A stretch of DNA of 64,000 nucleotides from Oscillospiraceae bacterium (GCA_050950425.1 JBMNHO010000002.1:1360154-1424153), one strand, 5' to 3'. Shown: positions 39,485 to 62,094, counted from the first letter of the stretch. The notes: a model not told the origin generated them from the sequence alone. A program made the numbers and translations.

Positions 39485-39577
39485 GTGCAGACTACCCGAT
39501 TGGGTGATTTTTATTACCCCATTTTTGCTATGCTGTTCTTAATGGGCAAAGTTTCGCCGGAAAAGGAGGGTCTTTCT

Positions 39578-40504
39578 ATGCATCACTATTGTTGGCACTG
39601 CGGCGCACAGCTAACACCCGGCAAAATGTTCTGCCGCAGCTGCGGAGCGCGGATACAGGCCGTCGCCCCGCCAAACACAGCCCCGCACAGCGCTCAGCCT
39701 GTCCCGTCCGGAGAGAGGTGGGGAAAGGCTGAACATCTGCAGCAGTTAGGGCTGGCCGCATACCTCAAGGCGGGTGTCGGTGCGGGGCTTGCGTCCTTCA
39801 GGCAGACGCTGAAAAACCCCAAACAGCTCATCCCCATGCTTGCGCTGGGCGCACTCTGGCTCGCGCTCTCCATCCTGCCCGCGCTGGGCATCAACCCCTT
39901 GCCGGTGCAGCTGCTCTCCTTTTTGACGTTTGCGCAGGGCGGCATGTACGGGGGCGTGTTGGGCGCAGTGGGCGGTGTGATGGGCAAGGCGGTGTTCGCC
40001 TACTTCGTAAGCGCCCTGCTGCTGCCGCTTTTTTCGGGCAAAAATCCGTTTCGCGGCATGGGCGGTGGTTTCAAGGCGTTTTTTTCAGGGCTGGCGGCGC
40101 AAAGCGCAAGCGCGGCCGCGTCGCTGCTGATGGGTCTTGGGTTGGCGCTGGTCTTATATAATTTCTTTACCGGCAACGCGGGCCTTGTCAGCAGCATGGC
40201 GGGCGTGTTCGGGTTCATACTGGCGCTCAAGTCGCTTTTGAGCAAAGGCGGGTTTGTTTGGGGGCTGCTGCTCACTGCGGCCAGCAAGTTCACCAAAGGC
40301 AGAACACCATCGCAAGAGGCCGCTAGGCACGCGGTGTCCGGCTACGCGGCAGGAAGCGCCGCAGGCATGGCGCTTTCCGTCTTATCTCGGCCCTATTTTC
40401 CTCTGACAGCGTATCTGCCTTACATGGCGGGCGCGGCCCTCCTCATCGCCGGGCTGAGCCTTGGCATTGCTGCAAAATCAAAAAAGAAGGTGGCGTCGGC
40501 ATGA
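39578..40504 (+). CDS. zinc-ribbon protein fused to a Gly/Ala/Leu-rich polytopic membrane domain
   Basis: N-terminal CWHCG-x10-CRSCG ribbon, then about 6 hydrophobic helices; AAGGAGGG upstream of ATG 39578. Confidence 0.6.
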   Translation: MHHYCWHCGAQLTPGKMFCRSCGARIQAVAPPNTAPHSAQPVPSGERWGKAEHLQQLGLAAYLKAGVGAGLASFRQTLKNPKQLIPMLALGALWLALSILPALGINPLPVQLLSFLTFAQGGMYGGVLGAVGGVMGKAVFAYFVSALLLPLFSGKNPFRGMGGGFKAFFSGLAAQSASAAASLLMGLGLALVLYNFFTGNAGLVSSMAGVFGFILALKSLLSKGGFVWGLLLTAASKFTKGRTPSQEAARHAVSGYAAGSAAGMALSVLSRPYFPLTAYLPYMAGAALLIAGLSLGIAAKSKKKVASA

Positions 40505-42300
40505 AAAAGAAGCTTTTGGCTTTCTTTGCGGTTCTTCTCCTGGTGCTGCCCGTCCTGTCGGTGACGGCGTCGGCCGAGCTGATGGATACGGAGACGGATC
40601 CCGCGCCGGTGGTATCGGGCGGCAGCTTCGAGGCCTCCTCCGGGACAAAGATGGAATTTAACGTTTCGGGCGGGACACTGACCGGAGCCAAATGGACGAC
40701 AAGGCCGCACCATGCGTCTTACAATCTGACCGGAACCTTCAAAGAGGGCGAAACCGTTTCGCTTTCGATTACCGGAACCGAGGCGCCGGGGCTTGCGGAG
40801 TCGACGACCAGCCATTTGGTGTGGAACGGTCTGAGCGGATACATCGACTATTACGCCGATGGCGGCTCAAGGATTGGCGAGACGCAGAGATACCAGTCGG
40901 AGTATGTAAAAAGTTCTCCCCTCTCCCACGCGTTCACAGCAACCATCCCGGCCGGCGCAAAAGAGATGGTTATCCAGGCCAATTTTGTTTGCCGCTGGTC
41001 AGTGGACTATTCCCTGGCGGTCGTGGAAGAATTTGTGGCCGTCAGTCTTAACCTGGAGGTGGAAAGGGAGGAATCCCCCGTGGTTATGCTGCCTGCGGAT
41101 CCGGAGCCTTCTAAAGGCCCCGGGCCGGACCCCTATTTCACACCGGATCAAATAACGCAGTGGGGGGAGGATTGTGACTGCGAAGGCCCCTGGACCCATG
41201 CCGGGCCGCTGGCTACCATCTTCATCGCCATTGTATCGGCGCTGGCCGCCATCTTTGGCGGAGGCATTGGCTCTGTTGCCGCGGCGGCGGGGGAAGCCGC
41301 CGGCGGTATGAGCGGCGGCTGGGATGCGGAATCCCCCCCCGAAAGAGATATGATCATCACCGACCCTGCGACGGGCGCGCAAACGCGTTTTGTACAGGAT
41401 CCGGCGACGGGGGAATGGGTTGACCCCGAAAGGGGAAGCATATTGGACCCGAGCCGGGTGCCGGGGTGGCAGCAGGAGCGCACATCCGAAAGGGAGTGGA
41501 TCGACCGCCAAAACGACTCGCTGCGAACGGGCGATAACGCCCTTGACAGGCATATAGCCGAAGACCGAGAGAGACAGGCCGCGGCTGAAGCGCTGAGTGA
41601 CGAGCTTCTGCGTATCGCCAAGCGGGCGCACGCGCAGCCGGCCAGTGAGCTAAACAACAACATAGCGAAAAATGCCCGCGAATTGGCCCACAAGCTGCTT
41701 TCGGGAAAGGAGCGGGATCTCGTTTCCGCCGACGACATCAACCGTGTAATGAAGGCTTTCTCCGGCTCGGCGACCGGCAGAATCATTGCGCACGGGCAGC
41801 TTCCCAAGGTACCGTCCGACATGTCCTTATACGGAAATGCCTTCTGGAATCAAATCGAGGAAATCTCGCGCAACGAAACGGCGTTCGCGGTGGTTTTTCG
41901 TACCGTGTTCGCCATCCCCACGGGCGGCGGATCCGAGCTCTTTTTTCAAACCCACAAGGGGTATCTGCGAATGCGTGATTACGTGGATGAGGGCGGCGAC
42001 AGCGTGATGGGCGGCGCGCTGACGGCTACGTGGGGAGCGGTAAAAGACTTTGCCGTGAGCAAAGCGTCCGACAAGCTCATGAAAGGCATAACACCGAAGG
42101 TGATGAAAAACAAGCCGATCGGCAAGGTCGACAAGTTTTTAAAAGACAGCTTTAAAGACCCCCGGAAATTGGATGTAGTCCATAAGATCATTTACAATCA
42201 GGTGAAACGTGCGCCAAGAGCAGCGATCAACAAAGGGGACGAATACACGCTCAATGTCGACGGAAATATACGGTCGGCTATCAAACGAATTTTTGATTGA
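40501..42300 (+). CDS. bitopic membrane protein: signal peptide, about 230-aa outer domain, one TM helix, about 330-aa cytoplasmic domain
   Basis: MKKKLLAFFAVLLLVLPVLSVTASA signal peptide; TM helix LATIFIAIVSALAAIFGGGIGSV; ATGA overlap with upstream gene. Confidence 0.65.
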   Translation: MKKKLLAFFAVLLLVLPVLSVTASAELMDTETDPAPVVSGGSFEASSGTKMEFNVSGGTLTGAKWTTRPHHASYNLTGTFKEGETVSLSITGTEAPGLAESTTSHLVWNGLSGYIDYYADGGSRIGETQRYQSEYVKSSPLSHAFTATIPAGAKEMVIQANFVCRWSVDYSLAVVEEFVAVSLNLEVEREESPVVMLPADPEPSKGPGPDPYFTPDQITQWGEDCDCEGPWTHAGPLATIFIAIVSALAAIFGGGIGSVAAAAGEAAGGMSGGWDAESPPERDMIITDPATGAQTRFVQDPATGEWVDPERGSILDPSRVPGWQQERTSEREWIDRQNDSLRTGDNALDRHIAEDRERQAAAEALSDELLRIAKRAHAQPASELNNNIAKNARELAHKLLSGKERDLVSADDINRVMKAFSGSATGRIIAHGQLPKVPSDMSLYGNAFWNQIEEISRNETAFAVVFRTVFAIPTGGGSELFFQTHKGYLRMRDYVDEGGDSVMGGALTATWGAVKDFAVSKASDKLMKGITPKVMKNKPIGKVDKFLKDSFKDPRKLDVVHKIIYNQVKRAPRAAINKGDEYTLNVDGNIRSAIKRIFD

Positions 42301-42317
42301 ATGGGAGGAAGTTGCCG

Positions 42318-43358
42318 ATGAACCCTGAAATCATGCATTTTACGGATGCACAGCTCAAGGCGTTGTCGCTGAAATATAAAATAAGACCCGGTCTGCTCTG
42401 TGCGCTGCCGCCCTTTTGCGCGGTGGAGCCGGCTTTGCCGCCCGTTTTGGACGAAGCACAGGAGGTGGCGCTCAACCTTGCGCTCAGGCCGTTGAACGTC
42501 ACAGACGCGGCCGTACTACTTGCAAACGACGGACTGATGTATATGCGGCTGAGCATGCGCGGCGAGCTCGGTGTATTGACAGGGCGCGAAGACGACGCCA
42601 ACGCGCTGCTGCCTTGTGAAGCGGGCGATTTCGCCACAACGGTGATGGCCCATCTGGCGCGGGGCGGTGAGCCGCTCAAGCGCGCGACGGCGCTTGACAT
42701 ATCGCCCAACGCCTTTTTGCTGCTGCTTGCCGCGGCCGACGCATATAAAATGCAATACCTTGAGGATCTGTTAAGCCATTCCGTGGCGGACGTGAAGCTG
42801 ACAACGGATGCGCTCGAACGCGCTGTGGGGGAGGCCTATGAAAACGCCGATCTCAGGTGGCTTTTGCCCTTCGCGCTGTTTCGGATGGAGCAGATACCCT
42901 GGCTGGACATTCAGTCGGCGCTTGATGAGCTTTCGGAGTTGGGCGTGCTTGAACCTGACAGCCTTACTTTTACGGGAGACGGCGAATTATTTGTGGACGA
43001 TTTGATGTTCCGTTCCGGAGTTGCGGACGTTTCCTCCGTTTATATGCAGGGGGAGGCGCTTGCCCGCTCGCATGTCCTGTTCATCCGCACCCTGAACACG
43101 CTTTGGGGCGTGCGGTTCGGCGACGGCGATGTCTCGATCCTCTCGCTGACCATAGACGAAGCGTGCGAGATGATGGCCGCCATGCTCACGCAGAAGGATG
43201 AACCAGGGGATAGGGAGGAGCCCGCAACGGAAACGGAACGGGAAGCGAAGGCGCAGCAAACAGTCGCGCGGCCAACCTCTAAGTTCTGTCACAACTGCGG
43301 CTCCAAACTCTCCGCCACCGCCGCGTTTTGCGGCAACTGCGGCACGAAATTGGGCTAA
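42318..43358 (+). CDS. soluble uncharacterised protein with C-terminal zinc ribbon
   Basis: C-terminal CHNCG-x10-CGNCG; GGGAGGAAG 7 nt upstream of ATG 42318; abuts stop of upstream gene. Confidence 0.6.
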   Translation: MNPEIMHFTDAQLKALSLKYKIRPGLLCALPPFCAVEPALPPVLDEAQEVALNLALRPLNVTDAAVLLANDGLMYMRLSMRGELGVLTGREDDANALLPCEAGDFATTVMAHLARGGEPLKRATALDISPNAFLLLLAAADAYKMQYLEDLLSHSVADVKLTTDALERAVGEAYENADLRWLLPFALFRMEQIPWLDIQSALDELSELGVLEPDSLTFTGDGELFVDDLMFRSGVADVSSVYMQGEALARSHVLFIRTLNTLWGVRFGDGDVSILSLTIDEACEMMAAMLTQKDEPGDREEPATETEREAKAQQTVARPTSKFCHNCGSKLSATAAFCGNCGTKLG

Positions 43359-44275: not shown

Positions 44276-44420
44276 ATGAAATCTGTTTTTGACAAGACGG
44301 AGCTTCGCCATTTACAGCTGAAAAACCGCCTTGTCCGCTCCGGAATCTGGGGGGGCACTGGCAAACCTGGACGACAGTCCCACGGCAGAGCAGCTTGCCA
44401 TTTATGAGCAAGTCTCCAGT
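44276..44420 (+). pseudogene. N-terminal fragment of an Old-Yellow-Enzyme-type NADH:flavin oxidoreductase, frameshifted
   Basis: MKSVFDKTELRHLQLKNRLVRSGIW then, after a G7 run (44349-44355), continues in another frame as LANLDDSPTAEQLAIYEQV; only about 50 codons present. Confidence 0.5.
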
Positions 44421-44688
44421 TCCATTGGCGCAGGACACCACAAAAACCAAGTCGAGTATGAGGACACTTCCGCTTGTGGCTGTATTCAAAGAAAAGCTGC
44501 CGACCTTAAAGGAACAGCAGACGGAGTATAAACGGCTTTGCGGCAAGTGCTATGACAAACAGTATCTGGACTACATTTGTGTAGATGAAATGGGAACGCT
44601 TGTATCTCCGCATTATGTGATATCGGCATTTCCAAAGCTGCTTGACAAGCACAGTTTGCGGAAGATACGCTTTCACGACCTCAGACAC
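44420..44688 (+). pseudogene. internal fragment of a Tn916-type tyrosine recombinase (integrase), lacking both ends
   Basis: TKTKSSMRTLPL...VDEMGTLVSP...FPKLLDKHSLRKIRFHDLRH (box I/II region); similarity stops right after HDLRH, and the catalytic Tyr region is absent. Confidence 0.6.
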
Positions 44689-44705
44689 CCGTATGTCAAG
44701 CCCAG

Positions 44706-44748
44706 ACTAAAAAAGCTAATGGATAATTCCTTAAAATCCATTAGCTTT
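44706..44748 (-). terminator. intrinsic terminator closing the 5-gene cassette
   Basis: 13-bp perfect stem AAAGCTAATGGAT/ATCCATTAGCTTT, 11-nt loop, T6 on the - strand; 13 nt past stop codon 44762-44764. Confidence 0.7.
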
Positions 44749-44761
44749 ATCTTTGATTATA

Positions 44762-45703
44762 TTAGAGGTCACCCTGTATTGAAAAGCCATCTATGATACC
44801 TGTAGGAGTAACGTCTACAGCTTCGAAATGATTGCTATTTCTTGCAACATGCAAACATGTAACTCCATTTTTGTTTAACAGGTCAGGAACAAGAGATATT
44901 GCGAAAATCAATGGCTTCGGGCCATCCGGTACTAAAATAACATCTCCAGTTGACAGCAGTTCATGAGACAAATCACAAAGCTTTGATACCATAAATGAAA
45001 AATCGTCCAGCTGCAATGCTACCGACATTGCTGCCTTAGAGAGGAAGCTCGCATTCACTTGCTTGATATTTTCTGCAAAGAATTCGCGTTTTGGATTGTA
45101 TGCATAGCATGCGACAAGGTAATCAGGATCTGTTATTGATATAATTGCCTGAGTTCTTATTGTGTCATACCCAAGAGCTAAGATGTGCACTCTGTTCTTT
45201 TCGATTTCCAAAGAGGGTCTCCCTGAGTAGAACGAAAATGCGTCTATGCCTGCACTGGGGTATTCTTCGTATGAATTTGGGTATTCTCCTTCAGAGTACC
45301 AGAAATAAACGATGTCGGTTTCTCTGAGCACACTTTGCAATAGCATTGGAAGTTTGCAGTACCATCCTCTCGGCATAGATGAATAGTCGATATGGACAGT
45401 CAACCTATCGCTACTAGTAGTCATTTTTTTTACTGTTTCAAGAATCTTTTTATGCACGGCTCGGCTGTCTGAATACTTTTGAATAATTATTTGCTGGTGA
45501 GATTCAATGGATTTTATTTTATCTTTTGAATGAGGATGGTTTTCATAGTCATCAAATGCAAATAGCATCATATTCGGCAAATGTTCAAACTCGGATACCT
45601 TATCCAGCAAATGAGAAGAACGCTGCTCATAGCCAATTGAAAAAACACAAAGACAGTTTCCTTGGAATAGTTCCTTATCAAATTCCGCATTCTTAATGAT
45701 CAT
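44762..45703 (-). CDS. uncharacterised 313-aa protein, last gene of cassette
   Basis: AAGGAGG 7 nt upstream; start overlaps ATPase stop (TAATG); AT-rich codon usage matches neighbours; no motif recognised. Confidence 0.7.
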   Translation of the reverse strand: MIIKNAEFDKELFQGNCLCVFSIGYEQRSSHLLDKVSEFEHLPNMMLFAFDDYENHPHSKDKIKSIESHQQIIIQKYSDSRAVHKKILETVKKMTTSSDRLTVHIDYSSMPRGWYCKLPMLLQSVLRETDIVYFWYSEGEYPNSYEEYPSAGIDAFSFYSGRPSLEIEKNRVHILALGYDTIRTQAIISITDPDYLVACYAYNPKREFFAENIKQVNASFLSKAAMSVALQLDDFSFMVSKLCDLSHELLSTGDVILVPDGPKPLIFAISLVPDLLNKNGVTCLHVARNSNHFEAVDVTPTGIIDGFSIQGDL

Positions 45704-47490
45704 TAGTCACCCTCCTTAAACAGCGATATTTGGTCAAACTCGGGCTGCTTAATGATGCTTTTAGGGTTTTTAACTGTATAAGTTTGAACTTGATTATCAA
45801 TTATCGATATTTTTTTCGGTGCAACATCAGGCCGCATTGGTAACCAGTATTTTGCAGCATATGCATTGGCAAGTAGGTATTCTGTTTCTTTTGAGATTCC
45901 ATTTTTGAGAGTATCCTCATCAACAATAATTCTTGAATAGGCAATAGCTAGCTCTAGCCATCCTTTCGCATTGACAAAAGAGTCATCCTCCCTGAATCCC
46001 AAGACAAAATTACATCCAGCCGATACTAAATACGAACCATGCACATGATTCTGCAAAGTTTCAGCGATTTTATCTAACTCCCGATAAATGAGCGGACCAT
46101 AAGTCTCGAGCGCTTGTGTGGATTCGCAAAAGCTCTGTACATATTCAAAAATAACGCCATGTTGAGCTTTTGGTGTCAACACAGATGTTCTTGCTTTTTC
46201 AAACAGTATATTCATTATCTGTATAAAAGCCCGTGGATTGCCCTGAGATATTTTTCGTATCATAGGGCTACCTGCATACCATCCCGGTTTTCTGTTTCCT
46301 TCTTTCGATAAAGCATACATTTGCCTTACAAAGAAAATAGGTGCAGATTTATCATAAACTGTTTTTCTTTTATTAGAATAGTTATTGGCATTTTTTCTCT
46401 CGGAGAAGCTATTAATGATTTTTTGCTCGATTACTTCGTATGTCGATTCTTCCGCACCGCATTCCTCACGATAATAATCTATTTGATCGTCATTTCCGCA
46501 AACTCCAACAAAATCCTCAAGAGTTTCAATGACTAAACTAGGATCAAACCGGCTCTTCATGCGATGGGAGCAAAGCATGTTTGTTAAGTTTCGAAAATCT
46601 TGACTTGCAAAATCCATGTCCACAACACGATAATTGAAGTCATTTCCAGAGGAAACCGAAATCTTTTCTTCCAACGTTTCTAAGGTTTTGTGATAATATG
46701 GTAGGGTTGCGACTTTCAATGCTATTCGATTAGAGTCCGATCGAAAAACATTATTGATGCACTTCTGCATGGGTTCGGTTAAAAATTCAGCCTCGTCTAT
46801 ACATATTATCCATGTTGGTTCTTCGGCAAAATCTAAGCCTTTGGATATTAATCCTTTGACAGCTAATAGCGACGCTCCGATTGGGCGCTTGAACACAGGT
46901 GGAACGTTATCCAAACAATTTGTTTTCACATCGAAGTTGTAAAAAAGTTTCTTGAGTTTCATCGAGAGAGAAAATAAATCCGAAATATCGTCAGCATCAT
47001 CATCGAACCACATATTGTTTAGATCATTGGTAAGAGTGAAATTTTTCGTTGCACGCTTTAGCTTGTCATACTCTTCGGCCAACATTTCTTCAAGCTCTGT
47101 TAATAGTGATTGAGCAAGTAGACAATTGAAAGCAAATTGGAACAGTGCTATTTGTTCTTGCTCCGTGGTATCCGTACTTGTTAAATGGGTTACAAATTCC
47201 AAGTACATCGGCACATATAATGCAAGATACTCTTTATTATCTAATAATTCTTTTGCGCGTGGATCTTGTACGCGCTTAAGCATTGAATAACGCATCATTT
47301 TTAATAAAAATGTTTTTCCACTACCACGTGTTCCCAGAAGGACTTCATGCTGATCGTTGAAAAGAGACCAATAGTTGGATATTGGGTAAAATTCATTTAT
47401 TACCTTTGTATCAGAAAAGTTTCGTGCCTGACTATCGCTAAAGGGATTTTGCATACTGGAGCCTTTAATACAATCAGCAACTCTATCCAT
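45703..47490 (-). CDS. P-loop NTPase (AAA/ORC-Cdc6-like), 595 aa
   Basis: Walker A GTRGSGKT (47311-47334), Walker B TWIICIDEAE (46786-46815); ATG 47490 has GGAGG 7 nt upstream and overlaps the end of the upstream gene by 8 nt. Confidence 0.8.
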   Translation of the reverse strand: MDRVADCIKGSSMQNPFSDSQARNFSDTKVINEFYPISNYWSLFNDQHEVLLGTRGSGKTFLLKMMRYSMLKRVQDPRAKELLDNKEYLALYVPMYLEFVTHLTSTDTTEQEQIALFQFAFNCLLAQSLLTELEEMLAEEYDKLKRATKNFTLTNDLNNMWFDDDADDISDLFSLSMKLKKLFYNFDVKTNCLDNVPPVFKRPIGASLLAVKGLISKGLDFAEEPTWIICIDEAEFLTEPMQKCINNVFRSDSNRIALKVATLPYYHKTLETLEEKISVSSGNDFNYRVVDMDFASQDFRNLTNMLCSHRMKSRFDPSLVIETLEDFVGVCGNDDQIDYYREECGAEESTYEVIEQKIINSFSERKNANNYSNKRKTVYDKSAPIFFVRQMYALSKEGNRKPGWYAGSPMIRKISQGNPRAFIQIMNILFEKARTSVLTPKAQHGVIFEYVQSFCESTQALETYGPLIYRELDKIAETLQNHVHGSYLVSAGCNFVLGFREDDSFVNAKGWLELAIAYSRIIVDEDTLKNGISKETEYLLANAYAAKYWLPMRPDVAPKKISIIDNQVQTYTVKNPKSIIKQPEFDQISLFKEGD

Positions 47491-48712
47491 GATTAGCCTC
47501 CTTCCTAATAAGTACAACATCATTTGGAAAGCTTCCGATCATCTTGTGTGTATTTGAAAGCTGTTCCGTTATCTGCTGATTAAGCTTGTCAACCGGAAGG
47601 AAACGAAGGCTTTCATCTAAACTTTCCCAAGTAACTTCATAAACCATCTCAGCTGGCTCTGATAAATCTTTTATTGCTTGAATTCTTTTGTCTGCATCAA
47701 AAATTTTCCCAAGCAACATTTTATGATCAATAGGCGTTTCCGGACAATTGCTTTTAATCGGAATCCATCCGAGTGCAGATGAAAACTGATAACTATAGAG
47801 TTCCAACACACCGACCTCATCAGAAAGATCAATAATATGTAGTGTATTGGGGATCTCACCATGCCTATGAGCTGCGTTGACCGCGAGGCTACCTGCACAA
47901 ATAAATGTTATTGGATAATTCCAACCATTTTTTTGGTCGGTTTCTGCTCTTGGATGATGACGATGACCGTGCAGTACTAAGCGAATACCATTTTGACCCG
48001 CAATTTCAAGAAACCTACTTCCTTCTTCAAGCGTTGATATATCCGGCCCTGGTATAGGGAAGCTATAATTAAAAGGGTGATGGTGCATCATTACGATTTT
48101 CCATCTTGAATCTGCACTATACTCTTTAGCGATAGACTCAAACCATTCCAGTTGTTTTGCATCAAGTTTTCCCCTAGGAAAAGATTGATCGCGGGTACTG
48201 TAACAACCTGTGTTTAGGACAAACATTACAAAGTCTTTATTTTCTATAATTCCGGTATACGGGGCAGGTCCAGTTTTATTTAGTGGAGGTATATTTTCTA
48301 TATTTATTAGCGCAGCCTGAGCAGCCATTTCCCGGTATTTTTCCCTTACTAAATCATGGGGAAAATCAGGGGGCATTTTCTCGAAGTTTGAATATAAGTC
48401 AGATATTTTCCAATCAATATCATGGTTTCCCAATCCAAGTATGACATTATCACGTGGAATTTCGGCTCTATCTGCTATATCCAGTAACGCTTTTTCGCAG
48501 TTAAAAAATTCTTGGGGACTTCCTAGAGAAGTTAAATCTCCAGCTATACAAAGATATTGCGTATTGGTTTTTTTGAGTACTGAAATCAGACTCTCGGTTA
48601 ACGATATCCCTCCAGCATTTTCATCTTTGATAGGCTCCCCTGGGACAGAAAGTTCTGCTGTCCTTGAGAATCGCCCAAAATGAATATCGCTAATCAACGC
48701 AATACGAACCAT
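47483..48712 (-). CDS. calcineurin-like metallophosphoesterase with about 130-aa C-terminal extension
   Basis: All five MPE motifs in order: ISDIHFG, IAGDLTSLG, LGNHDIDW, MMHHHP, VLHGHRHHP; GAGGAG upstream of ATG 48712. Confidence 0.85.
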   Translation of the reverse strand: MVRIALISDIHFGRFSRTAELSVPGEPIKDENAGGISLTESLISVLKKTNTQYLCIAGDLTSLGSPQEFFNCEKALLDIADRAEIPRDNVILGLGNHDIDWKISDLYSNFEKMPPDFPHDLVREKYREMAAQAALINIENIPPLNKTGPAPYTGIIENKDFVMFVLNTGCYSTRDQSFPRGKLDAKQLEWFESIAKEYSADSRWKIVMMHHHPFNYSFPIPGPDISTLEEGSRFLEIAGQNGIRLVLHGHRHHPRAETDQKNGWNYPITFICAGSLAVNAAHRHGEIPNTLHIIDLSDEVGVLELYSYQFSSALGWIPIKSNCPETPIDHKMLLGKIFDADKRIQAIKDLSEPAEMVYEVTWESLDESLRFLPVDKLNQQITEQLSNTHKMIGSFPNDVVLIRKEANHG

Positions 48713-48759
48713 GCCATTATCTCCTCAAAAAAGTAATCGTCATAATCTAATCCGTACAT

Positions 48760-49584
48760 TTATTGTTGATCTTCTAGCAATTGGATTGGATATGAGGATA
48801 CTAATAATTCTTCTTGTGAGCCACGTCCTTCAGCCAGTCCTGATATTGAACTAAATCTGCGCAATGCCTGAGTGTAGAAATTGTTTTGCTCGTACATTTG
48901 TTGTATATCAGGATAGTATGCATTAGTAGCCAACACTATCGCGCCTCGATCACGTGCCCGTGTTAATGCATTTAGCAGACGTTTTTGGTCTTTCCAAGAG
49001 AATAATCTCTCGTTATATTTAATAAAAGCGTTTTGGTTATGTGCTATGGTGTAGGGGGGATCAGCGAAAATGAGATCCCCCTGCATCGCTGCACGTATTG
49101 TATCAACAAAATCCTGCTTTCGTATGTGAACATTATGTAGCACCTCTGAATACGCTTCAAAACGTGCCACATCATCAACGAACTGTTGTTTTGTGCCAAT
49201 CGGTACGTTGAACTCTCCTAACCGATTGACGCGATACATACCGTTAAAGCATGTCCTGTTCAAATAGAGAAATCTGGCAGCCCGCTCAATAGCGTTATCA
49301 GGTACGTTCGCTCTGACTGCATAATAGTGATCTGCGCAATGATTTTCTTGGTGTTGGATCAATTGCTCCCTGAGTTGCGCTGGATTTCTTGCCATCACTT
49401 TATATACATTTATCAATTCACCATTTATATCGGAAATGGTGGCTTTCGCGGGAAGTAAAGAAAAGAAAGCAGAGCCGCCACCGAGAAACGGTTCAAAATA
49501 GTGGTTATATTCTGCTGGGAAGATGTAACGATAGTTTGCAATTAGCCATCGTTTCCCGCCCGGCCATTTTAGAAAAGGATGCAC
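48760..49584 (-). CDS. Dam-family (D12 class, alpha group) N6-adenine DNA methyltransferase
   Basis: FLKWPGGKRWL, SAM motif FEPFLGGGSAF, catalytic FADPPY (49051-49068); GTG start 4 nt after the upstream stop. Confidence 0.9.
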   Translation of the reverse strand: MHPFLKWPGGKRWLIANYRYIFPAEYNHYFEPFLGGGSAFFSLLPAKATISDINGELINVYKVMARNPAQLREQLIQHQENHCADHYYAVRANVPDNAIERAARFLYLNRTCFNGMYRVNRLGEFNVPIGTKQQFVDDVARFEAYSEVLHNVHIRKQDFVDTIRAAMQGDLIFADPPYTIAHNQNAFIKYNERLFSWKDQKRLLNALTRARDRGAIVLATNAYYPDIQQMYEQNNFYTQALRRFSSISGLAEGRGSQEELLVSSYPIQLLEDQQ

Positions 49585-49588
49585 GTGG

Positions 49589-49783
49589 TTAGTTCACATC
49601 CTCTCTACGGGATTTCACGCCTTTTCTTCTCGCATCTAAAGGCTTTTTTGCATCTTTTGGTATCGCCCATGATTTCCCCAGACGAGCGATTTTCTCGATA
49701 CGGCCTTGTTCACAAAGGACTTGCACTCTACGCTCTGATATGCCCCATTTTTCAGCGGCGTCTTTTGCAGTCATATATTCCAT
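49589..49783 (-). CDS. small helix-turn-helix DNA-binding protein (excisionase/MerR-like HTH), 64 aa
   Basis: MTAKDAAEKWGISERRVQVLCEQGRI HTH; ATG 49783 lies downstream of the predicted promoter, GAGG upstream. Confidence 0.7.
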   Translation of the reverse strand: MEYMTAKDAAEKWGISERRVQVLCEQGRIEKIARLGKSWAIPKDAKKPLDARRKGVKSRREDVN

Positions 49784-49824
49784 ATCATCAAACCTCGTAA
49801 CTGGATAATCAAGCACATATAGAC

Positions 49825-49853
49825 ATTGTATACGGAACGGCGAATAAAATCAA
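49825..49853 (-). promoter_or_regulatory. promoter of the cassette
   Basis: On - strand TTGATT (49853-49848), 17-nt spacer, TACAAT (49830-49825), about 40 nt upstream of the HTH start. Confidence 0.4.
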
Positions 49854-49917
49854 CAAAATCTGCGCCATTTCGCCAAGATAAGATGGACTGTGTTGTAAAG
49901 CCCGGTGCCGAGCCATC

Positions 49918-51441
49918 TTAAACAAAATCCGAAATCGCCCAATCTATTTCAATCCGATTATCAGGGTACACATAAACCCTGTTCACAAGCAGCTCCGCGA
50001 GAGTGCGTGTGAGCTTACCGGCTCCGGTGACATCCTTTGCGATGCCCCGGATTTTTTTGTTGCCCTCAGATGATAACTGCATCCGTTTCACCTCAGATTC
50101 CAGCCGCTTGAATATCTGCTCAATCTTCCGTAGGTCACTATCAACAACGGACTTTGCCGCCTTGTAATTGTCAAGGCTGATTTCCTCCATCAAATACTGC
50201 TCATACAAGCGGCGCTTATCATCTTTCAGGGCATTAACTTTTTCCTCATATACGGCCTTTTCTTCAAGGCGAATGTCCAGTTTGCTAACATCGCTCAGAC
50301 TGTCAGCACCGAGGATGATCCTTGCTTTTTGTTCCGAAAGCGTATAGATGAGGGCTTCCAAATCGCTCTCCAAAATCTCCTGCAAACGGCATTCCATGTG
50401 TTCGTAATGCCTTGAGTAATTACAGATAAAAGCCGGATTCTTCTTCAAGCGGGACATTGCGTGTTTACAGCAACCGCAAAACACCATGCCCCGCAGCGCG
50501 TATTCATGCCGATTTTTCTTAACGCTGCTGCCCTTCGGAAATATCGCCTGAACCTGTTCAAACACATCCATAGAAATAATCGCGGGATGAAAGTCGGGGA
50601 TTTTGAACCACTTGCTTTCATCATTGCGGCGAACGTGATTGCCGCCCACTTGGGTGACAGCAGTTTTGCCGTAGATGTACGTCCCGGCATAGCGCTCATC
50701 ACGAAGGAAACGCAGAACAATGGTGGGATGCCAGATATTATTTGAGCGTGATACATCATGGGTCTTATCACCGCGAGCCACCTTATATTCGCCGGGGGTG
50801 GGAATATTCAAGTCAAATAGCTGCTTGGCGATTTTGGGGGCGCTCATGCCCTCCAGCGCCAGATCAAAAATTGTTCTGACCACCGGCGCAGTCTGCTCAT
50901 CAATAACAAAGTGTTTATCTTCGCCGGGGAGATAGCCGTAAGGAGTGCGCTTGTCATGGTATTCACCGCGCCGCATGAGGGCGTACTTAGCGCTTTTATA
51001 TTTGCGGGAAAGGTCATGGCTGTATTGCTCATGGATGAGATAGCGGAACGCAACATCCATGCCGCCGGTGTCGTTTTTATACTTATTGGTGTCGAAGTTA
51101 TCATTGATGGAGATAAAACGCACCTTAAACAGCGGAAATACTTGCTCAATGAAATAGCCGGATTCAAGGCTGTTGCGCCCGAAGCGCGAAAAGTCTTTGA
51201 CGATGATACAGTTAATCTGGAGGGTGCGAACCTTTTCGAGCATTTCCTGCATCGCTGGGCGCTCAAAATTCGTGCCTGTATAACCGTTGTCAACAAACTC
51301 AAGCACCTCGGCGCTGTCACCCTCCGGCATGGAATCCACATATTTATGGAGGGCAAGCTGCTGATTGCGGATGCTCATGCTATCTACCTTCGCATCCTCC
51401 AGTGACAAACGGATATAGAGCGCGATAACATATTTGCTCAC
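49918..51441 (-). CDS. large serine recombinase (1 of 3)
   Basis: Resolvase N-domain ALYIRLSLED (catalytic Ser), VKDFSRFGRN; recombinase domain, Cys zinc ribbon, coiled coil. Confidence 0.9.
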   Translation of the reverse strand: MSKYVIALYIRLSLEDAKVDSMSIRNQQLALHKYVDSMPEGDSAEVLEFVDNGYTGTNFERPAMQEMLEKVRTLQINCIIVKDFSRFGRNSLESGYFIEQVFPLFKVRFISINDNFDTNKYKNDTGGMDVAFRYLIHEQYSHDLSRKYKSAKYALMRRGEYHDKRTPYGYLPGEDKHFVIDEQTAPVVRTIFDLALEGMSAPKIAKQLFDLNIPTPGEYKVARGDKTHDVSRSNNIWHPTIVLRFLRDERYAGTYIYGKTAVTQVGGNHVRRNDESKWFKIPDFHPAIISMDVFEQVQAIFPKGSSVKKNRHEYALRGMVFCGCCKHAMSRLKKNPAFICNYSRHYEHMECRLQEILESDLEALIYTLSEQKARIILGADSLSDVSKLDIRLEEKAVYEEKVNALKDDKRRLYEQYLMEEISLDNYKAAKSVVDSDLRKIEQIFKRLESEVKRMQLSSEGNKKIRGIAKDVTGAGKLTRTLAELLVNRVYVYPDNRIEIDWAISDFV

Positions 51442-53075
51442 GATAATACCCCCTCACTCAGCCCGGATACTGAAAAACGGCAAGTGATAGAAACGCGCCT
51501 GTCCTCAAAAAGCTCTATGCGCTCTATGAGACGGTCAATCAACTCGGCGGTCAGTTGCGGATTGCGCTCAAGCTCCTGCGCATCCAATATGATTTTCTTT
51601 GCCTGAACCTCTTGTGCCTTTAGGTCGGAAAGCTCCTGCTCAAGCGCTGCTATACGGTGCTCTGCCGCCGCCGATTTTGTTTCATAATCACTTTTCATAG
51701 AGAAATACTCATCCTGTGTAATCGTACCGCTCACAAGGTTTTCGTACAGGCTGCGGACGATATAAAGGCTTTTATCCTTATCCTGCCGGAGAGCGGCAAT
51801 TTCTTTTGTGATGTTCGATTTTTCCTCGCTCTGGGCAGAGGTGTCTTTGCGAATTCGTATTGCATCATCCAGCGCGAGGTTAAGCTGGCGGCTCAAATAG
51901 GACAGTACAACCTCGGTCAATTCCTTTTCAGGGATGGATACCACCCTGCAAGCGCCTTTTCCCATGCGGCTTTGGGTGATGCAATGAAGATAATAGACAT
52001 GAGAGTGGACACGATTATGCCGCTGGCGGTGAAGCGGTCTGCCGCAATACCCACAGAAGATTTTACCCTTCCAAATGTTCGGGGTATATTCTGCTTTGGC
52101 CCTGTTGCTGCTATCCTTTGCAACTTGCTCTCGCAGGCGTTGAACAACATCATACATTTCATGGGTGATAATCGGCTCATGGGTATTGCGAACGACGATC
52201 CACTCCTCGTGCGAAACAGGGATTTGCTTGCGGTCAATAGATTTGGTCTTGCCTTGCACCATATCCCCGGTATAAACTTCATCCTCCAAGAGCTTAGAGA
52301 CGGTGCGGGTCTGCCATTTCCCCTCGCCAAGCAGATTTTCATGGGATATAAGCCCCTTCTGTTTCTTGTAATGGCTGGGCGGTAGGATATTACCCTCATT
52401 GAGCTTTTTTACGATGGTATTCAGACCATCACCGCCATGCGCCCACTCAAATATCTGCGCTACAACCGGAGCGGTCTCTGGGTCGATAATGAGCTTATGA
52501 CAATCATCGGGATGCTTCATATATCCGTAGGGCGAGCGTGCGCCGATAAAACCGCCCTCGCTCATACACTGGTGCTGCTGTGCCTTGATTTTGCGGCTGA
52601 TGTCCTTTGAATAGGCTTCATTTATCATGTTTTTCAGAGGGAGCATGATGCCGCTGTGGATGCTCTCGGTGTCGGCGCTGTCATAACAATCATTGACTGC
52701 TATGAAGCGAACATTGTATTTAGGGAAGTAGCGTTCAATATAATAGCCAGTGTCAATCACGTTGCGCCCAAGGCGGGAAAGGTCTTTGACCAGAACGCAG
52801 TCAATCAGGCCGTTTGCGATATCGCCCAGCATGGTCTGAAAACCCTCGCGCTGAAAGGTAGTGCCGGAAACGCCGTTATCGGTATAAACGCCGACAATTT
52901 GGAAATCCGGCTTATCCTCAAGATATTGCTCCAAAATCATGCGCTGGGTTTCAAGGGAGTTTCCCCGGTTGTTATTGTCCTCCACCGACAGCCTGATATA
53001 AAATGCACTACGGATATAGAGCGCTGCGGCAACCTTTGGGGCATCCGCAAGATATTTTCTACTTTTTCTGGCCAT
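51438..53075 (-). CDS. large serine recombinase (2 of 3)
   Basis: FYIRLSVEDN, VKDLSRLGRN, recombinase and zinc-ribbon domains; 4-nt overlap with downstream recombinase. Confidence 0.9.
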   Translation of the reverse strand: MARKSRKYLADAPKVAAALYIRSAFYIRLSVEDNNNRGNSLETQRMILEQYLEDKPDFQIVGVYTDNGVSGTTFQREGFQTMLGDIANGLIDCVLVKDLSRLGRNVIDTGYYIERYFPKYNVRFIAVNDCYDSADTESIHSGIMLPLKNMINEAYSKDISRKIKAQQHQCMSEGGFIGARSPYGYMKHPDDCHKLIIDPETAPVVAQIFEWAHGGDGLNTIVKKLNEGNILPPSHYKKQKGLISHENLLGEGKWQTRTVSKLLEDEVYTGDMVQGKTKSIDRKQIPVSHEEWIVVRNTHEPIITHEMYDVVQRLREQVAKDSSNRAKAEYTPNIWKGKIFCGYCGRPLHRQRHNRVHSHVYYLHCITQSRMGKGACRVVSIPEKELTEVVLSYLSRQLNLALDDAIRIRKDTSAQSEEKSNITKEIAALRQDKDKSLYIVRSLYENLVSGTITQDEYFSMKSDYETKSAAAEHRIAALEQELSDLKAQEVQAKKIILDAQELERNPQLTAELIDRLIERIELFEDRRVSITCRFSVSGLSEGVLS

Positions 53076-54733
53076 TATCCTGCCCTCCTTTGTTCTGTAC
53101 GCTCCGCTTGCAGAACCGCAAGTGCCGTTTCATACTCAAGCTGAAAGTTGAAGTCAATCTCAATCTGCGTTTTGCTGACAATGCGGATATTGCTTACAAG
53201 CTGTACGAGTGCCATGCGGTCAAGGGATTGCATGGTCTCATATTTGCGGAAATGAGCAATCCACTTGCGGCGATTGGAGGTGTTATTCAGCACGCTTTCA
53301 AGCTCGGCTTCCAGCGTCGCGTTCGCTTGCTCAAGGGTGGAAATCTCATCCGCATACATCTTTTTATTATGCTGGTAATCATCCTTGCTCAAAACACCGC
53401 AGATAAGATTTTCATAGAGCCGAGCTTTAAAGTTTTTCAAAGTATTCATCTTCTCGTTGTTGTCAGCAAGCTGGCGCTGGTACTTCTCAACCAGCTTACG
53501 GTTGATGCGTTCCTCGTTTATGCTGGCAAGCAGCTCATCAAGGGCAACGACATTATCAATATGTGCTTTTACGATGGCCAGCGCCAAATCATTCAGGTCA
53601 TCCTCTTTAATCTGCGGAGTGGTGCAGCCGTTTTTCTTTCCGGTAGGGCAGGCATAATAGAAATACTTTTTATCCTTATAGGGAACGGTTTTCCGTACCA
53701 TGCGTTCCCCGCAGCAACGGCAGACCAATAAGCCGGAGAAAAGATGCACCGATTTCCCATCCGGCGCTGTTCGCGTATCCAGGTGGCGGATACGCTGAAC
53801 AAGGTCAAAATCATGCTTGCGGATAATCAGCTCATGGGCATCTTCAATCCGCACCCATTCATCGTCGGGAAGGAAAGCCTTGTCTTTGAGCTTATAGTTG
53901 GAAGTGCATTGCCGCCCTTGAACCAATGTGCCAGTGTAGGTCTCATCCTGCAAAATACGGGTGATGGTGTTGGGAGACCATTTAGCGTTTTCACTGTCGG
54001 CAAAGCCGCCGCTTGGACAGGGTAAACCCTGCTGCCTTTTATACATAAGGGGCGAGAGGATGCCCCGCCCATTGAGGATTTCAGCAATGCGGTAGGCGCT
54101 CATGCCCTCCAATCTCATGTGGTAGATATCGCGCACAACCTCAGAGGCATACTCGTCGATGACAAGCTGATTCTTGTTTTCCTCAGATTTCAGATAGCCA
54201 TATACGGCGGTTGCGCCTACAAAATCGCCGTTGCGCCGCTTAACGGCAAGTGCGCTGCGGGTTTTGATGGAGATATCGCGGCAATAGGCTTCGTTTATGA
54301 TATTTTTTACCGATACAGTTAGCTCCTCGCCGTTATTATCGGCGACAGTGTCGATACCATCGGTAATGGCAATGAAACGGACACCGTAGGCGGGGAATAC
54401 CCGGCGCAGATAGCGGCCGGTCTCAATATACTCGCGCCCAAGCCGGGAGAGGTCTTTGACGATAACGCAGTTAATCTTGCCATCCTCAATATCTCGCATC
54501 ATCTGTTGAAAATCCGGTCTGTCGAACGCAAGCCCCGAATAACCGTCATCTATATACTCGGCTTCAAGGGAGATTTCAGGATGGTGGCTGAGATAATCAT
54601 TGATGAGCTTCTTCTGATTCGCCACGCTGCCACTCTCGGTGGACTTATCATCCGTATAAGATATGCGGATGTATTTAGCTGCCCGGTATTTCGGCAACGT
54701 AATTGCTTGTGCTTGTTTTGGTATTTTAGTCAT
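53075..54733 (-). CDS. large serine recombinase (3 of 3)
   Basis: AKYIRISYTDD...SVANQ, VKDLSRLGRE, CRCCGERM zinc ribbon; ATG 54733 has AAGGAG upstream (track start 54826); 1-nt overlap downstream. Confidence 0.9.
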   Translation of the reverse strand: MTKIPKQAQAITLPKYRAAKYIRISYTDDKSTESGSVANQKKLINDYLSHHPEISLEAEYIDDGYSGLAFDRPDFQQMMRDIEDGKINCVIVKDLSRLGREYIETGRYLRRVFPAYGVRFIAITDGIDTVADNNGEELTVSVKNIINEAYCRDISIKTRSALAVKRRNGDFVGATAVYGYLKSEENKNQLVIDEYASEVVRDIYHMRLEGMSAYRIAEILNGRGILSPLMYKRQQGLPCPSGGFADSENAKWSPNTITRILQDETYTGTLVQGRQCTSNYKLKDKAFLPDDEWVRIEDAHELIIRKHDFDLVQRIRHLDTRTAPDGKSVHLFSGLLVCRCCGERMVRKTVPYKDKKYFYYACPTGKKNGCTTPQIKEDDLNDLALAIVKAHIDNVVALDELLASINEERINRKLVEKYQRQLADNNEKMNTLKNFKARLYENLICGVLSKDDYQHNKKMYADEISTLEQANATLEAELESVLNNTSNRRKWIAHFRKYETMQSLDRMALVQLVSNIRIVSKTQIEIDFNFQLEYETALAVLQAERTEQRRAG

Positions 54734-54859
54734 GAAAAAACACACTCCTTTAGATGATTTACGCAGAAAACCGCAAATCAAGGGAGCGTGTTGGTCGCTA
54801 TTATTTTCATCCTTTTCCATGACCATAGTACCATGTTTTGCGGATGGCAGTCAATCTTG

Positions 54860-55108
54860 TCAAGCGATAATTCCTTTCAGACAATCTTCAAGAGAAGAAC
54901 CGCTTTGGGAAAAGTTTGCCTTGACGATGTACTTCCCGCAGCGAAAGCAATAGGGATTGCCGATCTGCCGCAGAAACTCAGCAATTCGAGCATCGCGGGG
55001 CAAGGTTTTATCAACCTTTATATTGCGAATGTCGGTCAGCTCTCCCGGCTCGACACTTTGAATGTCTACCGCCTGCAACTGAGCCAAGCTATGTGTGCCA
55101 GCGTTCAT
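54860..55108 (-). CDS. small conserved hypothetical protein (82 aa) upstream of recombinases
   Basis: MNAGTHSLAQLQAVDIQ...NPYCFRCGKYIVKANF; part of the longer 207-aa track ORF, the rest of which overlaps the next gene. Confidence 0.55.
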   Translation of the reverse strand: MNAGTHSLAQLQAVDIQSVEPGELTDIRNIKVDKTLPRDARIAEFLRQIGNPYCFRCGKYIVKANFSQSGSSLEDCLKGIIA

Positions 55109-55121
55109 ATTCGTTCCCTCC

Positions 55122-55496
55122 TTATGGGTTTTGAAAGCTCTCAGGATAGAGCAGCTTAATGGCTTCAAAGAAATACAGTGCTTTCCCATCGCAGAACAGC
55201 TCATATGGGGTGTAGTATCCGGCCAATTCTCCGCCAGATTCACCATTCCAGCCGTTGTAGAGATTGAATGCCAATCGGGTGATACGCAAAGTTCCGGATG
55301 TCTGCCAGCACTTATACAGCCCCTCAGTTTCAATGCCCTTCTCAGCAAAGTCATAGAGGTCGGCAATATTGCGTCGGGTATCATCGGACAGTCCCAGCGT
55401 ATAAAACAGGGCGAGGTGGTATGGATCATTCTGTGAGTGGGTGCGCTCCATAATCTTGCGGAAAAAGTCATTGTGCGCTTCATCTAAGAAAATCAT
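55122..55496 (-). CDS. conserved hypothetical protein (about 124 aa)
   Basis: MIFLDEAHNDFFRKIMERT...; AGGGGA 8 nt upstream of ATG 55496. Confidence 0.55.
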   Translation of the reverse strand: MIFLDEAHNDFFRKIMERTHSQNDPYHLALFYTLGLSDDTRRNIADLYDFAEKGIETEGLYKCWQTSGTLRITRLAFNLYNGWNGESGGELAGYYTPYELFCDGKALYFFEAIKLLYPESFQNP

Positions 55497-55974
55497 ACAC
55501 ATTTCCCCTTTATCATAAATTTGACTTTCAAAGCCAGAAGAACAGGCAGATTGCACTTGTGGGCGCAATCTGCCCGTGGTTTCCGGTTTTGAAAACTGCC
55601 GTATTTGCCACGCTCCCCGGCAAGGGAACACACTCAGGCTGCCCTTGGCAGGGCATCATAGCTCCACTTTATGGTTGCTGTGCCAAAGCTGACCTATATC
55701 GCAGAGACTCCACCTCAAGTCCGTGGGTGGTCGTGAGAAAGTATCGTTAGCACCCGGTGCATCCTCGCGTTCCGCTTGCCAAGGCGGATTTGAAAGATTG
55801 CGTTTATCGTCAAGCGCCGCTCTTCCCTCGCTCTGCTACCGGGATATGTACCTGAGTGCCGTATATGACCGAGGGTGACCCGGTGTTTTTCAAGCTGCGG
55901 CGAAAGGCTGTCCGCTAACGGACAAAGCACCTTTCATTATTCATTTCATTTTCGAGCCAAAACCGCAGCCTGAA

Positions 55975-56401
55975 TTAAAAAGAATCTTCCAAAAAAACAG
56001 CCATGTGATGCAATGCCCGGCTGATGGACTGGCGAATGGCACTCTCGTTCACATTCTCAGCTCTCGCAATGGCGGCTTTACTCATGCCCATGATGAAGTG
56101 GGCATACCACCCGCTTGGCCTGCTTGTCCGGCAAACTGGCGAGTGCGGCATAGAGTTGCTCCATAGTCAGCCTGCGTTCCAAAATCTCGTGTGGAGTCTG
56201 GGTGAGGAGGAGCGCTTCACGCTCAATCTGATCTCCGCAGTCCAGCGAATAATATGCCTTGTTCCTGTATGTACGTAGGCGGCAGGCCGCTTCACAGAGC
56301 CTAAACTCATGCAGTGCAGTTGCTACTTCATCGGGTACAGAAATTTCACAATCAGAGCTGTATAGCTCCGGATAATATTTTCTAAGGTTGATAATAGTCA
56401 T
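55975..56401 (-). pseudogene. sigma-70 region-4-like / Tn916 orf7-like regulator carrying a +1 frameshift
   Basis: Track ORF ends ...DKQAKRVVCPLHHGHE*; shifting one base at about 56106-56112 restores YAHFIMGMSKAAIARAENVNESAIRQSISRALHHM... (HTH), open to a TAA at 55975. Confidence 0.6.
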
Positions 56402-56495
56402 TGGATTTCCTCCGTTTTCGATTTTTAGGGATGGCGAATCGAAAGATGGAGGGAGGATCCCGGCAACCTACGCTGCCAAAGGTATATAAATACAA

Positions 56496-56537
56496 AAAGG
56501 CACACAGGCAGGTATAGAAACCTGCTTGTGTGCCTTT
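56496..56537. terminator. strong hairpin in the divergent intergenic region
   Basis: 17-bp stem AAAGGCACACAGGCAGG/CCTGCTTGTGTGCCTTT (one G-U pair), 8-nt loop. Confidence 0.45.
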
Positions 56538-56581
56538 GTTAGGTTTAATGTCTTTTAATAGTTGAGTGATGTAGGGAATAC

Positions 56582-56626
56582 ATAAGGCGAGCTTCGACTC
56601 ACCGTGTGAATTGAAGCTCGCCTTAT
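56582..56626. terminator. second strong hairpin
   Basis: 14-bp perfect stem ATAAGGCGAGCTTC/GAAGCTCGCCTTAT with 17-nt loop. Confidence 0.4.
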
Positions 56627-57162: not shown

Positions 57163-57217
57163 TCATTTCTCCGTATCAAGAGAAAAAAGAGCCGATAACT
57201 GTGAGATATACTCACGG

Positions 57218-62047: not shown

Positions 62048-62094
62048 TATTTCATTCCTCCTGAATCAAGTATTAGAACGCCCAATCGCTTGCA

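Follow-up and report, generated by a model that had tools for sequence, protein, structure and literature searches.

A conserved four-gene set joining a Dam-type methyltransferase to a phosphoesterase, an AAA+ ATPase and a CARF-like protein as a candidate anti-phage system

We analysed a 64,000-nucleotide stretch of the genome assembly of an Oscillospiraceae bacterium (GCA_050950425.1, JBMNHO010000002.1:1360154-1424153; hereafter the window), in which five genes form a compact cassette bounded by a promoter and a terminator. This cassette is one example of a widespread, conserved and unnamed set of four genes, which encode a Dam-type DNA methyltransferase (MTase), a calcineurin-like metallophosphoesterase (MPE), an AAA+ ATPase and a CARF-like protein; a helix-turn-helix (HTH) gene at its head is a local addition. 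In our reading of the window all five open reading frames (ORFs) are co-directional on the minus strand, running from 49783 down to 44762. The HTH gene (49589..49783) encodes 64 aa when read from an ATG, the start also used in the close relative Ruminiclostridium sufflavum DSM 19573 (locus L001), and its mechanical ORF begins upstream of that codon, at GTG 49816. It is followed by the genes for the MTase (48760..49584, 274 aa, GTG start), the MPE (47483..48712, 409 aa), the ATPase (45703..47490, 595 aa) and, last, a protein of the CARF6 family (44762..45703, 313 aa). Gaps of 4 nt and 47 nt separate the HTH from the MTase gene and the MTase from the MPE gene, respectively, the MPE and ATPase genes overlap by 8 nt (ATGGATAG), and the ATPase gene overlaps the 313-aa gene in a TAATG.

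A sigma-70-type promoter (TTGATT-17-TACAAT, 49825..49853, minus strand) precedes these genes and an intrinsic terminator (44706..44748, minus strand) follows them. Matches to the promoter consensus are not more frequent than chance (15 found against 15.9 expected in shuffles), and the promoter was called on its match together with its conservation, both hexamers and the stretch after the -10 being kept in L001, a cultured isolate with a close copy of the cassette including the HTH gene, and in a second relative, L003. The terminator was recognised from its inverted repeat and folding energy; its stem is perfect over 13 bp (44712-44724 / 44736-44748), with an 11-nt loop and a T6 run, and it folds with -17.8 kcal/mol (z = -3.4; 0 of 200 shuffles equally stable). 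A hairpin with changed stem bases occupies the matching position in both L001 and L003. Homology to these two relatives at the DNA level starts at 49877 and 49865, respectively, and stops at 44683 and 44692; because it spans promoter to terminator, we take the cassette boundaries to be real and the cassette to be a true evolutionary unit. At the cassette end lies a conserved 18-mer (CTTGACATACGGGTGTCT, 44683..44700, minus strand), which also stands past the terminator in L001 and L003. No second copy of it was found within the window, and no repeats flanking the cassette as att-like ends were found. The G+C content is 0.38-0.39 in the cassette versus 0.55-0.61 over the first 44 kb of the window.

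The ORFs, junction lengths, terminator and conserved boundaries all agree with the first-pass annotation of this locus, which had described five co-directional genes between a promoter and a terminator. The motifs it had listed are likewise all present, namely FEPFLGGGSAF and FADPPY in the MTase, five metallophosphoesterase motifs in the MPE, and GTRGSGKT and IICIDEAE in the ATPase. Its statement that each start has a strong Shine-Dalgarno sequence is borne out for four of the starts (GAGG, GAGGAG or AGGAGG, 6-9 nt away) and fails for the MTase GTG, which has no good one, the nearest candidate being a GAGGA 14 nt upstream. Translation of the MTase is probably coupled to the HTH stop.

To find relatives, one genome per species was searched with an alignment of the CARF-like protein, which yielded 24 loci, whereas a scan of genome contigs with the single 313-aa sequence as the pattern yielded none. 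The first-pass annotation had proposed asking whether the genes co-occur elsewhere, and they do: the MPE, ATPase and CARF-like genes (hereafter the triad) are collinear in 22 of the 24 genome loci, the remaining two being truncated, and the three genes overlap or nearly abut across these loci. The loci fall in seven groups (Bacillota, Bacteroidota, Desulfobacterota, Nitrospinota, Planctomycetota, Verrucomicrobiota and Acholeplasmataceae) and include Oscillospiraceae, Lachnospiraceae, Ruminococcus, Ruminiclostridium, Acholeplasmataceae, Marinilabiliaceae and Plebeiibacterium, together with members of the Desulfobacterota, Nitrospinia, Planctomycetota and Verrucomicrobiota. A Dam-type MTase is encoded no more than 3 kb away in each genome locus with sufficient flank; its gene precedes the triad in most Bacillota and follows it in other phyla, and in two loci it lies on the opposite strand. 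The linked MTase co-diversifies with the triad, as pairwise identities of the MTase and the ATPase are correlated (Mantel r 0.81, 0 of 2000 permutations); for the genes of the triad, Spearman coefficients of pairwise identity are 0.80-0.93, with 0.93 for MPE versus ATPase. Among the flanks of the inspected loci no further consistently linked gene was found.

More distant copies were seen in metagenomes from gut, rumen, soil, peat and marine habitats, where 80 loci carry CARF6 relatives at 25-30% identity and the triad is collinear in all that are long enough to be judged. Of the 34 distant triads flanked by 1.2 kb or more on each side, a Dam-type MTase was identified by profile in 25 and a divergent D12 MTase in 1, leaving about 8 (about a quarter) with no linked Dam-type MTase. 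Elsewhere the MTase gene is present and broken. In L005 (6061-6943) and L056 (570-1398) the linked Dam MTase is frameshifted while the MPE, ATPase and CARF-like genes are full length, and in L055 (101-2707) it is split by a 1.7-kb insertion with a transposase-like ORF (an insertion sequence, IS), downstream of which the triad is full length.

The HTH gene does not share this conservation. Its product is a DNA-binding protein of the HTH_17 type (excisionase/MerR-like; Pfam PF12728, E 1.9e-8), and among 20 regions upstream of the MTase a homologue occurs only in L001, for which reason we define the core unit as four genes. A five-gene unit was considered and rejected, the HTH gene being a lineage-specific accessory.

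The MTase scores 225 bits against the NCBIfam model TIGR00571 dam (curated cut-off 114.85) and matches Pfam PF02086 with an E-value of 1e-45. DPPY and FxGxG motifs can be read in its sequence, and its nearest solved structure is DpnM of the DpnII GATC system (180 bits). By these sequence criteria it is probably a Dam-family N6-adenine DNA methyltransferase specific for GATC. E. coli Dam contacts DNA through K9, R124, N126 and P134, and the equivalent residues are conserved in 52 of 52 system-linked MTases; the specificity of the linked enzymes seems constant, with none of the diversification of restriction-modification (R-M) systems. We agree with the first-pass annotation that this enzyme is no orphan MTase and does not belong to a textbook type II pair.

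One reading of such an arrangement is restriction-like, or akin to bacteriophage exclusion (BREX): Dam would mark self GATC sites, the AAA+ ATPase with the CARF-like protein would recognise unmethylated DNA, and the phosphoesterase would cut that DNA or block its replication. The tight linkage and co-diversification of the MTase with the triad agree with this, as does the position of the MTase, which varies around an unchanging triad in the manner of R-M systems; the module also often adjoins R-M systems. However, searches of PADLOC, Pfam and NCBIfam returned no restriction endonuclease family for the MPE, the ATPase or the CARF-like protein, and MTase specificity apparently does not diversify. 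Nor does the one shared promoter provide a controller-type delay for establishment, and intact triads with a broken or absent MTase should be lethal under this reading unless another Dam is present. We regard a restriction-like function as the main rival of the reading that we favour, somewhat less likely than it, and return to it below as the partner proteins are described.

The MPE is a calcineurin-like metallophosphoesterase (Pfam PF00149, E 2e-16) with a catalytic domain at about residues 1-290 and a conserved C-terminal domain of unknown fold. Its metal-ligand motifs are all invariant in the orthologues. The protein opens directly with metallophosphoesterase motif I at residue 9; there is no N-terminal fusion resembling a PUA domain, and no PUA match was obtained with Pfam or NCBIfam. 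The best NCBIfam match for 20 of 20 MPE orthologues is DS9_1, the model of the DS-9A anti-phage phosphoesterase (best E 2e-30), and this match covers the entire Cal domain of the cassette MPE; the same orthologues also match DS-8 (16), CpdA (17) and SpdA (14), and just 2-3 of the 20 match SbcD or Mre11 models. A profile search of the PDB gave a similar order, with Lmo2642 (3e-8), Rv0805 (6e-5) and also Icc ahead of SbcD (2e-3) and Mre11 (0.09), the last two confined to motifs I-III. By sequence the MPE therefore groups with DS-9A, DS-8 and cyclic-nucleotide phosphodiesterases, and not with Mre11/SbcD. The first-pass annotation was right about the five calcineurin-like motifs and wrong in likening the enzyme to Mre11/SbcD. 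A nuclease of the SbcCD/Mre11 kind was also considered and rejected, both on these weak matches and on the partner ATPase, which is AAA+ and not ABC/SMC. For the restriction-like reading, the metallophosphoesterase fold does include the nucleases Mre11 and SbcD, weak as the matches are here, but the MPE lies nearer to nucleotide phosphodiesterases and DS-9A/DS-8 than to nucleases. Since the MTase, MPE and ATPase are the sole recognisable enzymes, the MPE is the candidate effector. Its relatives DS-8 (a NACHT-metallophosphatase fusion) and DS-9 (a metallophosphatase with HAD) are validated anti-phage systems that require the phosphatase catalytic residues (DefensePredictor, PMC13092281).

The ATPase matches the Pfam ORC-CDC6-like family PF24389 over 564 of 571 profile positions (E 5.3e-110, 369 bits, cut-off 27). 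The Walker A and Walker B motifs that the first-pass annotation had picked out (GTRGSGKT and IICIDEAE) belong to a Walker A GxRGxGKT and a Walker B DEAE that are invariant in 38 homologues. The AlphaFold2 model has a predicted local distance difference test score (pLDDT) of 79, and a Foldseek search with it retrieved non-significant matches to ORC, RuvBL and RFC only, the best ORC at E 1.1. PF10923 in Pfam was not matched, nor did tblastn against plasmid and phage collections give a match. We consider the AAA+ ATPase a candidate switch or scaffold. ORC/Cdc6-type ATPases are DNA-binding proteins, which speaks for the restriction-like reading, as does a weak similarity of the ATPase to mad8 of the methylation-associated MADS. 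We would also like to note that about 50 residues before Walker A, within residues 1-58, are near-invariant over the 38 homologues (NPFSDSQARNFSD..K..NEFYP...FWSLFNDQHE), and that residues 20-24 and 38-58 are nevertheless modelled by AlphaFold at pLDDT <50. This N-terminal segment could bind a partner or ligand and fold only in the complex.

The first-pass annotation had recognised no motif in the fourth protein of the core set, which turns out to be a catalogued one. The 313-aa protein matches the PADLOC profile PDLC01921 'CARF6' with E 2.8e-115 (residues 2-309 on profile positions 3-298 of 298), and four more CARF6 profiles match it more weakly, each with E < 1e-3; these profiles are the set of Makarova et al. 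2020 as carried by PADLOC-DB. Its AlphaFold2 model (pLDDT 91.4) has two Rossmann-like lobes, and in Foldseek searches of the PDB retrieved the CARF domains of Cam1, Csa3 and Can2 at probability 1.00, Csm6 at about 0.99, and the SAVED domain of Cap4 at 0.90 over 317 columns. Single-sequence PDB searches with the CARF-like protein, the ATPase and the MPE yielded nothing meaningful. The family has 47 invariant columns in 38 homologues and comprises 768 representative clusters at 50% identity, nearly all unfused and of about 310 aa; a protein recorded from an Oscillospiraceae metagenome-assembled genome is identical to the one described here. An internal duplication was looked for by hhalign of the N-terminal against the C-terminal half and was not significant (probability 1.5%), with that alignment pairing GYE-RS with GYD-IRT (GY[ED]-x-R motifs). 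The viral structure library BFVD returned generic Rossmann folds only, and a scan of viral contigs with the CARF alignment found no relative. The profile match and the predicted fold point to a nucleotide-derived ligand, and suggest that the 313-aa protein is a stand-alone CARF/SAVED-like protein and a candidate nucleotide-ligand sensor. We know of no R-M or BREX system in which a ligand-sensing CARF/SAVED protein takes part, a further count against the restriction-like reading.

Such a sensor could also belong to a cyclic-oligonucleotide arm, with the CARF-like protein sensing cyclic oligoadenylate or a cyclic di- or trinucleotide that type III CRISPR or a cyclic-oligonucleotide-based antiphage signalling system (CBASS) produces elsewhere in the cell, and with the MPE as its effector or as an off switch of the ring-nuclease type. 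CARF and SAVED domains are the canonical cyclic-oligonucleotide receptors (PMC9704534), and the MPE resembles the cyclic-nucleotide phosphodiesterases CpdA, SpdA, Rv0805 and Lmo2642. Nevertheless, no cyclase (Cas10 or CD-NTase) and no cas genes were present in the inspected neighbourhoods, the module occurs alone between housekeeping genes, and the constant Dam methylase partner is left unexplained. We consider this reading very improbable.

In the window, the cassette promoter is directly preceded by three tandem genes for large serine recombinases (49918-54826; 507, 545 and 583 aa) with overlapping junctions and with Resolvase, Recombinase and Zn_ribbon_recom domains. At its other end the cassette abuts the remnant of a tyrosine integrase gene (about 44395-44700, plus strand) that is cut right after its HDLRH box, and the codons that end the remnant (...RHPYVK) come from the 18-mer at the cassette end, read on the plus strand. 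Both features had been noted in the first-pass annotation and are confirmed here. A serine recombinase lies upstream in L001 too and is merely 28% identical, and L001 (7461-8660) has the same break (HDLRH/PYVK) beside its cassette. Between the window and L001 the integrase pieces are 39% identical and the cassette proteins 62-72% identical. The shared break could be a decayed old junction, or integrase genes could be the target of a site-specific insertion; the second half of the integrase was not found in a motif scan of the window.

A defence-island or mobile-element setting, which had been suggested for this copy, was seen in many relatives. One copy lies between Abi_alpha and a type I R-M system, others adjoin type III R-M systems, AbiEii, IetAS, AriA, PDC candidates, serine recombinases or transposases, and some stand alone among housekeeping genes. 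The metagenomic triads with no linked Dam-type MTase are L049, L059, L062, L063, L064, L084, L111 and L112. In the six whose neighbours were assigned by Pfam, these are other genes of defence or mobility: a reverse transcriptase in L049, BrxC/D and a DEAD helicase in L059, a tyrosine integrase in L062, McrB-like and McrC proteins in L063, a helicase-PLD protein in L084 and an MFS transporter in L112. Patchy distribution together with frequent defence or mobile neighbours is the pattern of defence genes.

The same surroundings could be read in a non-immune way, as maintenance or addiction of a mobile element, or as epigenetic, repair or replication control through Dam and the ORC/Cdc6-like ATPase. 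The serine recombinases and the integrase remnant that adjoin the cassette in both the window and L001 fit the former, some copies do sit among housekeeping genes, and regulation of the Dam/SeqA/DnaA type is a precedent for methylation acting with AAA+ initiators. However, the flanks differ between loci, which argues against a constant mobile-element function; the ATPase has no match in plasmid and phage collections and the CARF-like protein none in viral contigs; the patchy cross-phylum distribution is typical of defence genes; and the putative effector is homologous to validated anti-phage phosphatases. We therefore hold a non-immune role to be improbable.

Several further observations concern the DNA around the cassette. 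The tetranucleotide GATC is depleted at 49854-64000, where 26 are observed versus 66 expected (observed/expected 0.39), the corresponding ratios being 0.99 in positions 1-44000 and 0.71 in the cassette; the element beside this GATC-methylase cassette looks shaped by GATC-directed restriction. Low G+C continues over 54860-63571, which encodes DUF6870 and DUF6075 proteins and an XRE-type HTH protein, and then lipid-type cargo, comprising two DegV proteins, HlyIII, a reductase of the NMO/FabK-like type, a CDP-alcohol phosphatidyltransferase and a PapA_C-like acyltransferase. The window stops short of the far end of this low-G+C element. On the other side, the high-G+C region 39485-43358 encodes zinc-ribbon and membrane or low-complexity proteins, two of them (339 and 353 aa) with Zn_Ribbon_1 and one of 599 aa with no Pfam match; these proteins could be placed in no other family.

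The four-gene set most likely forms an anti-phage system that puts adenine methylation to an unusual use. The reading that we favour, with a probability of roughly 0.4, is an abortive-infection alarm, in which methylated nucleotides would be sensed and nucleotide pools depleted. The Dam-type MTase would write G(m6A)TC (m6A, N6-methyladenine) on the host chromosome as a barcode and not as protection from a nuclease, and degradation of host DNA by a phage or another insult would yield methylated (deoxy)adenine nucleotides or short m6A oligonucleotides. The stand-alone CARF/SAVED-like protein would bind the methylated nucleotide, or another nucleotide ligand, and signal to the ORC/Cdc6-like AAA+ ATPase, which would act as an NTP-driven switch or scaffold and may also perform an NTP-to-NDP step. 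The tightly coupled calcineurin-type phosphoesterase would then be released and hydrolyse free nucleotides, such that nucleotide pools would drop, replication would halt and the infection would abort. A fuller version is a self-sufficient system with its own Dam barcode, a CARF/SAVED receptor specifically for methylated (oligo)nucleotides and an AAA+-gated, nucleotide-depleting effector; we offer it tentatively and think it rather unlikely in all its parts.

That the presumed Dam contact residues are kept in every linked MTase fits dependence on one particular methylated product. The tolerance of the triad for a missing MTase, whether broken (L005, L055 and L056) or unlinked (about 8 of 34), likewise counts for an alarm. 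The first-pass annotation had proposed a modification enzyme for self-marking; protection of self is not the sole reading and, in our view, not the likeliest, as triads with a broken or absent MTase exist.

Several points weigh against the alarm. We know of no CARF or SAVED domain that binds N6-methyl-dAMP (m6-dAMP) or methylated oligonucleotides. The cassette has neither a PUA domain nor a HAD partner, and no HAD family was found by Pfam among the cassette genes or among the recurrent flank families. The MPE scores 78 bits on DS9_1, far under the equivalog cut-off of 420, and its substrate is not deducible from metallophosphoesterase homology. The ATPase has no significant structural match, so its C-terminal half could hide a DNA-acting function, and its defence-related matches are weak, the methylation-linked one being MADS mad8 in PADLOC (E 2.4e-6, P-loop region). 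Finally, errors of assembly may account for the frameshifted MTase genes, the IS insertion in L055 may silence the downstream triad by polarity, and the hosts of MTase-less triads may carry Dam elsewhere.

If the module is a defence system, it is a widespread one of four genes, present in at least seven phyla, that joins DNA methylation, CARF/SAVED nucleotide sensing and nucleotide-targeting phosphoesterases, subjects usually studied apart. It also poses a sharp question, namely whether methylation here protects self DNA or labels it so that its breakdown can be sensed. To our knowledge the CARF/SAVED receptor class is so far known for cyclic-oligonucleotide second messengers alone, and through this module CARF domains could prove to have a new kind of ligand. 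Were the alarm reading true, methylome-derived danger sensing would reach beyond PUA domains, and CARF ligands beyond enzyme-made messengers.

Taken singly, the Dam methylase, the CARF6 protein, the ORC-CDC6-like ATPase and the calcineurin-type effector are all parts of known kinds, and a published set of CARF profiles already includes the 313-aa family; it is the four-gene combination that is undescribed in the sources searched. It is not among the system models of PADLOC 2.0 or NCBIfam (June 2026), in keeping with the first-pass annotation, which could match it to no named system, and no description of the gene set was found in the published literature searched, two computational surveys that possibly mention parts of it lying outside that scope. 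With GATC R-M systems of the DpnII/MboI type the module shares a DpnM-like Dam methylase; it differs in having three unrelated partner genes, in having no R.DpnII-like or other endonuclease family, and in that the triad is tolerated without the methylase. With BREX and MADS it shares a methylase, a large AAA+-type ATPase and a phosphatase-fold protein with no recognisable restriction endonuclease. The likeness to MADS is weak (mad1 E 0.0026 for the HTH protein, mad8 E 2.4e-6 for the P-loop region of the ATPase) and the mad1-mad8 set is not present; no Brx or Pgl model in PADLOC matched a cassette protein at E <= 0.1. Unlike those systems, the module has no PglZ, PglX, BrxA/B/C/L or other mad genes, and consists of four genes only, with a small Dam-type methylase and a CARF-like sensor. 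Effectors of type III CRISPR and CBASS (Cam1, Csm6, Csa3, Can2 and Cap4) share the fold of the 313-aa protein, whereas here the CARF-like protein is unfused, has no cyclase or CRISPR linkage, and has the Dam methylase, the AAA+ ATPase and the phosphoesterase as its constant partners.

The closest comparisons are with DS-9 and DS-8. DS-9 is PUA-Cal-HAD, in which the PUA domain detects the m6-dAMP set free when Dam-methylated host DNA is degraded on phage infection, and the HAD and calcineurin domains convert dNTP to dNDP to dNMP, depleting dNTPs (Zhang et al. 2026, 10.64898/2026.01.15.699771); relatives of PUA-Cal-HAD are reported to be linked to N6-adenine methylases without restriction enzymes (10.64898/2026.01.15.699771). 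Our module resembles DS-9 in its calcineurin-type phosphoesterase, the nearest characterised relative of the MPE being, by best model match at a score far under the cut-off, that of DS-9, in its tie to Dam, and in a dedicated nucleotide-binding sensor, here a candidate one. It differs in that a separate CARF/SAVED-like protein replaces PUA, there is no HAD, an ORC/Cdc6-like AAA+ ATPase is added, and the module usually brings its own Dam gene. With DS-8 it shares the pairing of a P-loop NTPase with the same kind of metallophosphatase, here as overlapping genes. The NTPase here is a separate, ORC/Cdc6-like AAA+ protein, whereas in DS-8 it is a fused NACHT, and DS-8 has no methylase or CARF-like partner. 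We favour an alarm read from a methylation barcode because the kind of effector and the tie to Dam match DS-9 and the NTPase pairing matches DS-8, the sensor fold being different.

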